This document shows positions 14,931-49,489 of a stretch of 64,000 bases of DNA, in pieces. The notes under the pieces were generated by a model that saw only the letters and a list, made by a program, of their open reading frames with translations, was not told the origin of the DNA and did not search any database. This DNA comes from Escherichia coli (GTDB taxonomy: Bacteria; Pseudomonadota; Gammaproteobacteria; Enterobacterales; Enterobacteriaceae). Location of the stretch: assembly GCF_003334765.1 (NCBI RefSeq), contig NZ_QOWT01000003.1. The stretch is one strand, 5' to 3'. Both the position numbers and the translations under genes were made by a program. Each line of letters begins with the position of its first letter. Position 1 is the first letter of the stretch.

Positions 14931-17090
14931 ATGCTTTTTAGCTTTTTTCGAAATTTGTGCCGTGTTTTGTATCGCGTTCGCGTTACGGGTGACACCCAGG
15001 CACTGAAGGGCGAGCGCGTTCTAATTACGCCTAATCACGTCTCTTTTATTGATGGCATTTTGCTTGGACTGTTTTTACCTGTGCGTCCAGTGTTTGCCGT
15101 TTACACCTCAATAAGCCAACAGTGGTATATGCGTTGGCTGAAATCATTTATCGACTTTGTTCCTCTCGACCCGACGCAACCTATGGCTATTAAACATCTG
15201 GTACGTCTGGTGGAACAGGGCCGACCAGTGGTGATTTTCCCTGAAGGACGCATCACCACGACAGGCTCGCTGATGAAAATCTACGATGGCGCGGGTTTTG
15301 TCGCGGCGAAGTCTGGTGCAACGGTTATTCCTGTGCGTATTGAAGGGGCGGAACTTACGCACTTCAGCCGCCTGAAAGGTCTGGTTAAACGTCGCTTGTT
15401 CCCGCAAATTACTCTGCATATTTTGCCACCAACGCAGGTGGCGATGCCGGATGCGCCGCGTGCCCGTGACCGTCGCAAAATCGCTGGCGAAATGCTGCAT
15501 CAAATAATGATGGAAGCGCGAATGGCGGTGCGCCCGCGTGAAACGCTGTACGAATCTTTACTGAGTGCAATGTACCGCTTCGGAGCCGGGAAGAAATGTG
15601 TCGAAGACGTCAACTTTACCCCAGACTCCTATCGCAAATTGCTTACGAAAACGCTGTTTGTTGGACGCATCCTTGAAAAATACAGTGTTGAAGGCGAACG
15701 CATCGGCTTAATGCTGCCCAATGCAGGCATCAGTGCGGCAGTGATTTTTGGGGCCATCGCCCGTCGCCGCATGCCCGCAATGATGAACTACACTGCCGGG
15801 GTAAAAGGGCTGACCAGTGCTATTACGGCGGCTGAAATCAAAACCATCTTCACTTCCCGCCAGTTTCTCGATAAAGGCAAACTCTGGCATCTGCCGGAGC
15901 AACTTACTCAGGTGCGCTGGGTCTATCTGGAAGATTTAAAAGCAGATGTCACCACTGCCGACAAAGTATGGATCTTCGCTCATTTGCTGATGCCGCGTCT
16001 GGCACAGGTTAAACAGCAGCCGGAAGAAGAGGCGCTGATCCTTTTTACCTCCGGTTCTGAAGGCCATCCGAAAGGCGTCGTCCATAGCCATAAAAGCATT
16101 CTGGCGAATGTCGAGCAGATTAAAACGATTGCCGACTTCACCACCAACGATCGCTTTATGTCGGCGTTACCGCTGTTTCACTCCTTTGGGCTGACGGTAG
16201 GCCTGTTTACGCCACTGCTTACAGGTGCAGAAGTGTTCCTTTATCCAAGCCCGCTGCATTACCGCATTGTGCCGGAGTTGGTGTATGACCGCAGTTGCAC
16301 CGTGTTGTTCGGCACCTCGACTTTCCTCGGTCACTACGCGCGTTTCGCCAACCCGTATGACTTCTATCGTCTACGCTATGTGGTGGCAGGCGCAGAAAAA
16401 TTACAAGAAAGTACCAAACAGCTTTGGCAGGATAAATTTGGCCTGCGCATCCTTGAAGGCTACGGCGTGACCGAATGCGCGCCTGTCGTTTCTATCAACG
16501 TACCGATGGCGGCGAAACCCGGTACGGTAGGGCGTATTCTACCAGGAATGGATGCGCGCCTGTTGTCGGTCCCTGGTATCGAAGAGGGCGGACGCCTGCA
16601 ACTGAAAGGGCCGAACATAATGAACGGCTATCTGCGGGTGGAGAAGCCAGGTGTACTGGAAGTGCCCACCGCCGAGAATGTTCGCGGCGAAATGGAGCGC
16701 GGCTGGTATGACACTGGCGATATTGTGCGTTTTGACGAGCAGGGCTTTGTGCAGATTCAGGGCCGCGCAAAACGCTTTGCCAAAATTGCAGGCGAAATGG
16801 TGTCGCTGGAAATGGTGGAACAACTGGCACTTGGTGTTTCGCCAGATAAAGTCCATGCCACTGCGATTAAGAGCGATGCCAGCAAAGGCGAGGCACTGGT
16901 GCTTTTCACCACAGATAACGAACTGACGCGCGATAAGTTGCAACAGTATGCCCGCGAGCACGGCGTGCCGGAGCTTGCTGTACCGCGCGATATTCGCTAT
17001 CTGAAACAGATGCCATTACTTGGCAGCGGCAAACCTGACTTTGTCACGTTGAAAAGCTGGGTAGACGAAGCGGAACAACACGATGAGTGA
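14931..17090 (+). CDS. aas: bifunctional 2-acylglycerophosphoethanolamine acyltransferase / acyl-ACP synthetase Aas
   Basis: 719 aa; acyltransferase domain followed by an AMP-binding domain ([13 protein letters not shown]). Confidence 0.93.
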
Positions 17091-18276
17091 GTCAGTGCAC
17101 ACTAACACTTCGTTGTGGTCGAAGGGGATGAAAGCGGTTATCGTGGCGCAGTTTCTCTCTGCGTTTGGCGATAATGCCCTACTGTTTGCCACTCTGGCGT
17201 TACTGAAAGCGCAGTTCTATCCGGAGTGGAGCCAGCCCATCCTGCAAATGGTGTTTGTAGGTGCTTACATTCTTTTTGCGCCGTTTGTCGGGCAGGTGGC
17301 GGATAGCTTCGCCAAAGGCCGGGTGATGATGTTTGCCAACGGCCTGAAGCTGCTGGGCGCAGCCAGTATCTGCTTTGGTATCAATCCGTTTCTCGGCTAT
17401 ACGCTGGTGGGTGTTGGTGCTGCAGCCTATTCACCGGCGAAATACGGTATTCTCGGCGAATTAACCACGGGTAGTAAGTTAGTGAAAGCTAACGGTTTAA
17501 TGGAAGCTTCTACCATAGCGGCGATTTTGCTCGGTTCCGTAGCCGGTGGTGTGCTGGCTGACTGGCATGTCCTCGTCGCCCTGGCCGCATGCGCACTGGC
17601 CTACGGTGGTGCGGTCGTTGCCAATATCTACATTCCCAAACTGGCGGCGGCGCGTCCGGGGCAGTCCTGGAATCTCATCAACATGACCCGCAGTTTCCTG
17701 AATGCCTGCACCTCGCTATGGCGCAATGGTGAAACGCGTTTTTCGCTGGTGGGCACCAGTTTATTCTGGGGAGCGGGTGTCACGCTGCGTTTCCTGTTGG
17801 TGCTGTGGGTACCGGTGGCGCTGGGCATTACCGATAACGCTACGCCCACCTATCTCAACGCGATGGTAGCGATTGGTATCGTGGTTGGCGCAGGTGCGGC
17901 AGCGAAGTTAGTTACGCTGGAAACCGTGTCACGCTGTATGCCAGCCGGGATTTTGATTGGCGTGGTGGTACTGATTTTTTCCCTGCAACACGAGCTGCTG
18001 CCAGCCTATGCCTTGTTGATGCTGATTGGCGTGATGGGGGGCTTTTTTGTCGTTCCGCTCAATGCGTTGCTACAGGAGCGGGGTAAAAAAAGCGTCGGGG
18101 CGGGGAATGCGATTGCAGTACAAAACCTTGGCGAAAACAGCGCCATGTTGTTGATGCTGGGCATTTACTCGCTGGCGGTAATGATAGGCATCCCGGTCGT
18201 GCCCATTGGCATTGGCTTCGGTGCGCTGTTTGCGCTGGCAATAACGGCGCTGTGGATCTGGCAGCGCCGTCATTAA
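17083..18276 (+). CDS. lplT: lysophospholipid transporter LplT (MFS)
   Basis: 397 aa polytopic membrane protein; start overlaps the aas stop by 8 nt. Confidence 0.92.
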
Positions 18277-18281
18277 TATTT

Positions 18282-18303
18282 AACGCCGGTTTTAACCGGC
18301 GTT
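18282..18303. terminator. bidirectional hairpin between convergent lplT and tas
   Basis: aacgccggtt ttaa ccggcgtt palindrome. Confidence 0.5.
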
Positions 18304-18307
18304 AATC

Positions 18308-47823: not shown

Positions 47824-48029
47824 AAAAAAAAGCACCGCAATTAGGCGGTGCTACATTAATCACTATGGACAGACAGGGTAAATGTACAGGAAGTGAAAAA
47901 AGGTAGCTTTGCTACCATGGTCTGAATCGCAGACCAATTGCAAACACAACAACACAACATCACAACCGTAAGCCAAAAGTTCACCAGAACACGCATTCCG
48001 ATAAAACTTTTCGTTCCGGCTCAGGAAGT
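47824..48029 (-). ncRNA. gcvB: sRNA GcvB
   Basis: Reverse complement matches GcvB (ACTTCCTGAGCCGGAACGAAAAGTTTTATCGG...GTTGTGATGTTGTGTTGTTGTGTTTGCAATTGG...GCACCGCCTAATTGCGGTGCTTTTTTT); divergent from gcvA. Confidence 0.9.
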
Positions 48030-48157
48030 GCCGCCACTATAGGTATTTGCTGGTAGAAGCTCAACGGACAATTTATAATGGCTAAGATTAAAAAAACTAA
48101 TAGGTTACATAGTGTGATCTAATTGTTAAATTCATTTAACATCAAAGTTTAATAGCC

Positions 48158-49075
48158 ATGTCTAAACGATTACCACCGCTAAATGCCTTACGAGTTTTTG
48201 ATGCCGCAGCACGCCATTTAAGTTTCACTCGCGCAGCAGAAGAGCTTTTTGTGACCCAAGCCGCAGTAAGTCATCAAATCAAGTCTCTTGAGGATTTTTT
48301 GGGGCTAAAACTGTTCCGCCGCCGTAATCGTTCACTCCTGCTGACCGAGGAAGGGCAAAGCTATTTCCTCGATATCAAAGAGATATTTTCGCAATTAACC
48401 GAAGCGACGCGTAAACTCCAGGCCCGTAGCGCCAAGGGGGCGTTGACGGTCAGTTTACTCCCCAGTTTCGCCATTCATTGGTTGGTTCCGCGACTTTCCA
48501 GCTTTAATTCAGCTTATCCGGGAATTGACGTTCGAATCCAGGCGGTTGATCGTCAGGAAGATAAGCTGGCGGATGATGTTGATGTGGCGATATTTTATGG
48601 TCGGGGCAACTGGCCGGGGCTACGGGTGGAAAAACTGTACGCCGAATATTTATTGCCGGTGTGTTCGCCGCTACTGCTGACTGGCGAAAAACCCTTGAAG
48701 ACACCGGAAGATCTGGCTAAACATACGTTATTACATGATGCTTCGCGCCGTGACTGGCAGACATATACCCGACAGTTGGGGTTAAATCATATCAACGTTC
48801 AGCAAGGGCCAATTTTTAGCCATAGCGCCATGGTGCTGCAAGCGGCTATCCACGGGCAGGGAGTGGCGCTGGCAAATAACGTGATGGCGCAATCTGAAAT
48901 CGAGGCCGGACGTCTTGTTTGCCCGTTTAATGATGTTCTGGTCAGTAAAAATGCTTTTTATCTGGTTTGTCATGACAGTCAGGCAGAACTGGGTAAAATA
49001 GCCGCCTTTCGCCAATGGATCCTGGCGAAAGCCGCTGCTGAACAAGAAAAATTCCGCTTTCGTTATGAACAATAA
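48158..49075 (+). CDS. gcvA: glycine cleavage system transcriptional regulator GcvA (LysR family)
   Basis: 305 aa; N-terminal LTTR HTH (FTRAAEELFVTQAAVSHQIK). Confidence 0.95.
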   Translation: MSKRLPPLNALRVFDAAARHLSFTRAAEELFVTQAAVSHQIKSLEDFLGLKLFRRRNRSLLLTEEGQSYFLDIKEIFSQLTEATRKLQARSAKGALTVSLLPSFAIHWLVPRLSSFNSAYPGIDVRIQAVDRQEDKLADDVDVAIFYGRGNWPGLRVEKLYAEYLLPVCSPLLLTGEKPLKTPEDLAKHTLLHDASRRDWQTYTRQLGLNHINVQQGPIFSHSAMVLQAAIHGQGVALANNVMAQSEIEAGRLVCPFNDVLVSKNAFYLVCHDSQAELGKIAAFRQWILAKAAAEQEKFRFRYEQ

Positions 49076-49093
49076 TTTACGTAGGGTACGACC

Positions 49094-49489
49094 ATGACCA
49101 GCCGTTTTATGCTGATTTTCGCCGCCATTAGCGGCTTCATTTTTGTGGCTCTGGGCGCTTTTGGCGCGCATGTGTTAAGTAAAACCATGGGGGCCGTTGA
49201 GATGGGCTGGATCCAGACCGGCCTCGAATACCAGGCGTTTCATACGCTGGCGATCTTAGGTCTGGCGGTGGCAATGCAGCGTCGCATCAGTATCTGGTTT
49301 TACTGGAGTAGCGTTTTCCTCGCGTTAGGCACGGTGTTGTTCAGCGGCAGCCTTTATTGCCTGGCGCTGTCCCATCTGCGTTTGTGGGCGTTTGTCACTC
49401 CGGTTGGCGGCGTGAGCTTCCTCGCGGGCTGGGCGTTAATGTTAGTTGGTGCTATCCGTTTAAAGCGCAAGGGCGTAAGTCATGAATAA
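49094..49489 (+). CDS. ygdD: DUF423 inner membrane protein YgdD
   Basis: 131 aa, four predicted TM helices; overlaps the rlmM start. Confidence 0.9.

Follow-up and report, generated by a model that had tools for sequence, protein, structure and literature searches.

The 64,000-nucleotide (nt) stretch of Escherichia coli contig NZ_QOWT01000003.1 (assembly GCF_003334765.1), referred to at its full length as the window, contains a series of gene pairs in which the end of one coding sequence overlaps the start of the next, as well as several genes that begin with GTG. With a probability of roughly 0.9, the overlaps are the normal intercistronic junctions of E. coli operons, an architecture permitting translational coupling, and the operons concerned are very probably aas-lplT, ppdAB-ygdB-ppdC, ptrA-recB-recD, csdAE, ygdD-rlmM, and yqeIJ. 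As initiation codons, the GTG starts are an ordinary second choice, situated behind good Shine–Dalgarno (SD) sites. Both sets of features are real but are ordinary, catalogued elements of the E. coli chromosome and bring nothing new; the finding is already known because every overlap has been tabulated for strain K-12 and the ptrA-recB-recD operon has been published. It therefore matters little, restating the textbook operon organization of the best-annotated bacterial genome.

Overlapping junctions and start codons of the window

Gene coordinates correspond to the RefSeq annotation carried over from NZ_CP148385.1, and the codons were checked directly. The overlaps and GTG starts, together with the position of ptrA, are as follows:

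aas 14931..17090 and lplT 17083..18276, + strand: 8-nt overlap at 17083..17090, ATGAGTGA
ptrA 32061..34949 and recB 34942..38484, + strand: 8-nt overlap at 34942..34949, ATGAGTGA, the same octamer as at aas/lplT
recB and recD 38484..40310, + strand: 1-nt overlap, TAATG at 38482..38486, common base 38484
csdA 46183..47388 and csdE 45740..46183, − strand: 1-nt overlap, TAATG at 46181..46185, common base 46183
ygdD 49094..49489 and rlmM 49482..50582, + strand: 8-nt overlap at 49482..49489, ATGAATAA
yqeI 1634..2443 and yqeJ 1159..1641, − strand: 8-nt overlap at 1634..1641, GTGATTGA
27229..27238, + strand: ppdA stop overlapping the ppdB start, 10 nt
27789..27792, + strand: ppdB stop overlapping the ygdB GTG start, 4 nt, GTGA
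28181..28196, + strand: ygdB stop overlapping the ppdC start, 16 nt
41701..41703, − strand: GTG start of argA (first base 41703)
59668..59670, − strand: GTG start of xni (first base 59670)
21968..21970, + strand: GTG start of rppH
27789, + strand: GTG start of ygdB
32061..34949, + strand: ptrA (pitrilysin), between recC (28517..31885) and recB, first gene of the ptrA-recB-recD operon

All nine overlapping pairs are co-directional and leave no room between the genes for a terminator or a promoter. An earlier note on this DNA had reported the first six of these overlaps as operon-junction overlaps, the GTG starts of argA, xni, ygdB, and rppH, and the embedding of ptrA within the rec cluster, and this interpretation is supported: the six overlaps were found at the lengths it gave, the four GTG codons are present, and in the annotated coordinates ptrA lies between recC and recB with its stop overlapping the recB start. 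Most of these items fall within the range to which it assigned them (17083–49489), but yqeI/yqeJ (1634–1641) and xni (59668–59670) lie outside it. Its lists were correct but incomplete, since the in-range overlaps ppdA/ppdB (−10), ppdB/ygdB (−4), and ygdB/ppdC (−16) had been overlooked, as had three non-ATG starts (GTG in yqeJ and kduI, ATA in ppdC).

The spacings of the six pairs (−8 or −1) are inside the coupling-capable range of about −8 to +10, while ppdA/ppdB and ygdB/ppdC are slightly beyond the spacing range of Huber et al. 2023. The same nine values (−8, −8, −1, −1, −8, −8, −10, −4, and −16) appear among the unidirectional K-12 gene-pair distances in Supplementary Table S2 of Huber et al. 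2023, where recB/recD is the only pair flagged as a known protein complex and start-site evidence is not included. Nothing differs from the literature description of the K-12 ptrA-recB-recD operon either, in which the genes come in the same order, recB and recD overlap by 1 nt, ptrA contains the ribosome-binding site of recB, and transcription of recC is separate; the operon structure has been described (PMC12342828), as has the 1-nt overlap (PMC2586629).

Neither the overlaps nor the GTG starts were commoner than expected by chance for the genome. Spacings of −8 to +6 nt occurred in 9 of the 36 co-directional pairs of the window (25%), compared with 707 of 2987 genome-wide (24%; binomial p = 0.85), and GTG initiated 6 of 53 genes (11%), compared with about 14% genome-wide (p = 0.69). 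Overlaps of exactly 8 nt accounted for 4 of the 9 in the window versus 4 of 35 (about 11%) in a K-12 baseline obtained by reading two parts of the published gene-pair table (n = 35 overlaps; p = 0.013, uncorrected). This excess, together with the octamer ATGAGTGA common to aas/lplT and ptrA/recB, might be taken for a special signal such as programmed frameshifting leading to fusion proteins, and LplT-like and Aas domains are indeed fused in other bacteria. We give that explanation a probability close to nil. The comparison is post hoc, and about one such 64-kb window is expected per genome, so that the excess is not significant across the approximately 72 windows that a genome comprises. Moreover, the octamer is not conserved, being replaced in relatives by ATGAATGA, ATGCGTGA, ATGGGTGA, or, in most genera, by ATGA at −4, and the natural fusions place the LplT-like domain first, whereas aas comes first in E. 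coli. An overlap of 8 nt is merely the minimum possible in its reading phase (Huber et al. 2023), and −8 is the third commonest spacing, after −4 and −1, in published overlap surveys including that of Huber et al. 2023.

Start codons used by the downstream genes

Because the upstream stop codons are unambiguous, each overlap hinges on the downstream start alone. Some of the overlaps could in principle be annotation artefacts if translation of the second gene really began at a later codon or, in the case of recB, at a GTG 9 nt upstream (codon −3). In favor of this explanation, which we regard as very improbable, the SD sites of lplT and recB are weak at the annotated ATG (−3.5 and −2.5 kcal/mol, respectively), in-frame alternatives exist (for lplT a GTG at +4, an ATG at +15, and a GTG at +20), a broader LplT family model begins at residue 12, and the N-terminal peptide table considered below has no rows for lplT, recD, or yqeJ.

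Against it stand, in the first place, published N-terminal proteomics data for E. coli K-12, in which the peptides obtained for RecB, RlmM, CsdE, and CsdA match the annotated starts. The starts of RecB (peptide of residues 2–19), RlmM (MNKVVLLCR, residues 1–9), and CsdE (residues 1–21 and 2–21) are thereby confirmed, and the same table records ribosome-profiling support for these three starts and that of CsdA from Ribo-RET (retapamulin) and/or INRI-seq (cell-free), with both methods supporting the RlmM start. Start-site mapping had been named in the earlier note as the means of refuting the overlaps; at the recB, rlmM, and csdE junctions the published N-terminal data leave them in place. The GTG upstream of recB is ruled out by the RecB peptide, which fixes the ATG, and by its own lack of conservation. 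Within the relevant b-number range, the N-terminomics table contains no rows for argA, xni, ygdB, rppH, or yqeJ, an absence that is not evidence against their starts. Likewise, the INRI-seq table of alternative initiation includes non-annotated peaks only and is uninformative for lplT, argA, rppH, and xni.

Most of the other starts were compared across species, partly in a set of 80 RecB-centred loci, one per Enterobacteriaceae species (RecB identity 68–97%), whose junctions were modelled with tblastn. This comparison supports the annotated starts of lplT, recD, yqeJ, argA, ygdB, and rppH. For lplT, Salmonella, Enterobacter cloacae, and Citrobacter rodentium all have the junction ATGNGTGA unchanged, and across four genera codons 2–15 change mostly at third positions while the ATG remains invariant and the GTG at +4 is missing in two. 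These coding-type substitutions upstream of codon 16 rule out a start at the downstream ATG. The recD start (ATG or GTG) with its GGAGG site is kept in 79 species, and the yqeJ start is GTG in two lineages and ATG in two, at the same position and behind a conserved SD site.

Regarding the GTG starts, the same interchange occurs at the start positions of argA (GTG in 49 species, ATG in 22) and ygdB (GTG in 49, ATG in 26). The argA codon has the best SD site of the in-frame candidates (−7.1), and the corresponding energies are −11.9 for xni, −6.9 for rppH, −4.1 for ygdB, −6.4 for yqeJ, and −10.2 for kduI, whereas the alternatives have weaker SD sites or lie deep within the conserved protein. In rppH, an in-frame stop is located 9 nt upstream of the GTG; Salmonella retains this GTG but lacks the alternative one at codon +13. 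Support for the xni start comes from its SD site, the open reading frame, the family profile, and a literature note of a GUG start and a 753-nt reading frame (PMC1919509); upstream, the sole candidate in frame is a TTG at a distance of 30 codons. In alignments to NCBIfam profiles, residue 1 or 2 of RecB, RecD, CsdE, RlmM, ArgA, Xni, YgdB, and RppH falls on profile position 1 or 2 (ArgA residue 2 on position 2, Xni residue 1 on position 1, and RppH residue 1 on position 1 in three family profiles).

The start codon of ppdC is a case of its own. RefSeq annotates the ATA at window positions 28181–28183 (+ strand) as the start, and the exact 55-mer containing this ATA was found in 43 of 5426 complete E. 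coli genomes, compared with 5259 for the ATG version. The lineage of the window thus appears to carry a start-codon mutation in this cryptic pilin-like gene.

Conservation of the junctions and translational coupling

In all 80 species ptrA is located directly 5′ of recB, and in 79 of them the two genes overlap: by 8 nt in 31 species (Escherichia, Citrobacter, Salmonella, Phytobacter, and Kosakonia), by 4 nt in 45 (Enterobacter, Klebsiella, Raoultella, Kluyvera, and others), and by 20 nt in 3. Intestinirhabdus alba is the one species in which the genes stand apart, with a gap of 413 nt (locus L020, 9587–10001). The location of ptrA immediately upstream of recB has also been reported in Serratia, and its position has been attributed to horizontal transfer (PMC12342828, PMC2586629). 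At the end of the window's ptrA, ATGAGTGA occurs twice, 13 nt apart (34929–34949, + strand); the first copy encodes Met-Ser-Glu in the ptrA frame and is kept in the group of species with the −8 spacing, and the second forms the recB start over the ptrA stop.

The other junctions behave similarly. The recB and recD genes overlap in all 79 scorable species, by 4 nt in 71 and by 1 nt in 8 (Escherichia and a few others), so that the TAATG of E. coli is a minority variant. The csdA/csdE spacing in other species is −1 (29 species), −4 (9), 0 (4), or +17 (1), that is, 0 nt or less in 42 of 43. For ppdA/ppdB, −10 (48 species) and −7 (22) prevail among other values, ppdB/ygdB is at −4 in 75 of 76 species, and ygdB/ppdC is at −16 in 71 of 76, with ATG or GTG at the ppdC start position. 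The aas/lplT spacing was −8 in the three other genera compared. Homologs of YqeJ were found only in Escherichia (56–70% identity in E. albertii and two other lineages, L087–L089), where yqeI/yqeJ overlap by 8 nt in E. albertii and by 14 nt in the two other lineages, so that all four, including the window, have an overlap. The yqeI regulator gene precedes yqeJ in every case (window 1159–2443, − strand). Judging from these alignments, the conserved feature is the tight junction and not the exact overlap length or a particular sequence, which is the one small addition made by the cross-species survey.

The arrangement could act through termination–reinitiation coupling. With the downstream start codon lying 1–16 nt within the 3′ end of the preceding gene, a ribosome that terminates on that gene would for that reason already be at the next start and could reinitiate there, and fresh initiation would also be possible where a good SD site is present. 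Overlaps of 1, 4, and 8 nt are the minimum lengths compatible with the codon sets in either of the two available frames. The spacings named as enriched in the literature are −4, −1, and −8. In published experiments, strict coupling was found for 13 of the 14 overlapping pairs tested in E. coli and Haloferax volcanii, and other E. coli pairs showed it at short overlaps and lost it beyond about 20 nt (Huber et al. 2023, among other sources). Known short-overlap pairs of E. coli (at −8, kefF/kefC, murC/ddlB, and recE/recT) are likewise co-directional with overlaps of 1, 4, or 8 nt, and in both sets the downstream ribosome-binding site lies inside the upstream gene. For the pairs of the window, the sequences show the overlaps, the start codons, and their conservation, and we infer that downstream translation may depend on upstream translation.

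The SD sites indicate where such dependence would be most plausible, namely at lplT and recB, because theirs are weak. The recB site has a family-wide median of −3.0, compared with −2.2 for random codons in the window, while the medians of ptrA (−6.4), recC (−6.6), and recD (−9.8) are normal or strong. Coupling would be least necessary for recD, which has a strong GGAGG site (−12.1 in the window) and a minor internal promoter. In I. alba, where the 413-nt gap separates ptrA from recB, the recB SD site is stronger (−5.8).

Several points weigh against a role of the overlaps in coupling. In the literature on these loci, we found no experiment showing that any of the six downstream genes needs upstream translation. 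Production of wild-type-length RecD continued after the recB stop codon had been eliminated (PMC2586629), and recD can therefore initiate independently. The length of the overlap varies among species (−8, −4, or −20 at ptrA/recB; −1, −4, 0, or +17 at csdA/csdE), and the overall distribution of overlap lengths has been reproduced by neutral simulations, so that part of the pattern may reflect mutational drift and not selection. The low abundance of RecB, only a few copies per cell (PMC12342828), would by itself lead one to expect a weak recB SD site. In an alternative explanation, the overlaps would be real but neutral by-products of stop loss or start gain in packed operons, with each downstream gene using its own ribosome-binding site. 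We consider it rather unlikely, although it would account for the phase bias and the ranking of 4 above 1 above longer overlaps in the published simulations, the drift of overlap length among genera, and the strong SD sites that ppdB and ppdC, like recD, have of their own. It also agrees with the production of RecD without recB termination and with the folding of 100 nt around each of the six junctions, which revealed no structure hiding a start and nothing unusual in stability (all z-scores between −0.9 and +1.1). What speaks against it is the almost universal retention of overlap or abutment over the 80 species at several junctions, the strict coupling of 13 of the 14 pairs tested experimentally, and the strength of the recB SD site, which is close to background wherever ptrA and recB are not separated. 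Operon junctions that permit coupling remain our preferred reading of the overlaps.

A stronger version of this reading would be that, in the Enterobacteriaceae, RecB synthesis is obligatorily coupled to translation of ptrA, an unrelated periplasmic protease gene. We put this forward tentatively, at somewhat less than even odds, because of the overlap in 79 of the 80 species and the near-background recB SD site outside the species with the 413-nt gap. It is an extension of a suggestion already published and not a new idea: the recB ribosome-binding site inside ptrA has been taken as suggesting coupling, and RecB translation is reduced by Hfq action close to the ptrA ribosome-binding site (PMC12342828). 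If true, control at the ptrA ribosome-binding site, such as this repression by Hfq, would determine the very low copy number of RecB via termination–reinitiation, and a periplasmic protease gene would be tied to the control of double-strand-break repair.

Genomic context and other features

The window is part of the E. coli core chromosome, from yqeK to ppnN. All 5426 complete E. coli genomes were matched by a 20-kb part of it, several at 100% identity. It contains 53 protein-coding genes, from yqeK to sdaC, and part of ppnN at the right-hand end. Regarding the aas-lplT region, the LplT-like transporter domain matches the N-terminal part of acyl-ACP phospholipid acyltransferase families of approximately 1140 residues, so the transporter and acyltransferase functions are fused in a single protein in other bacteria, in the order opposite to that of aas-lplT.

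A single initiator-type tRNA-Met gene (43262–43338, − strand) is situated between amiC and mltA, while an otherwise identical reference strain bears three tandem copies there, which take up 220 bp more. The amiC-mltA interval was covered to at least 80% by one place in only 226 of the 5426 genomes, so a reduced tRNA-Met copy number is uncommon; the single copy may represent a repeat collapsed in the assembly. At the left edge, positions 1–391 (− strand) correspond to a hypothetical gene annotated as frameshifted, and a gene for a 26-residue small protein (yqeL in K-12) is located at 1046–1126 (+ strand), 35 nt after yqeK. Finally, two convergent gene pairs were observed: ygeA (+ strand) and lysR (− strand), whose 3′ ends overlap by 14 nt (10989–11002), and lysA and galR, which are 6 nt apart.

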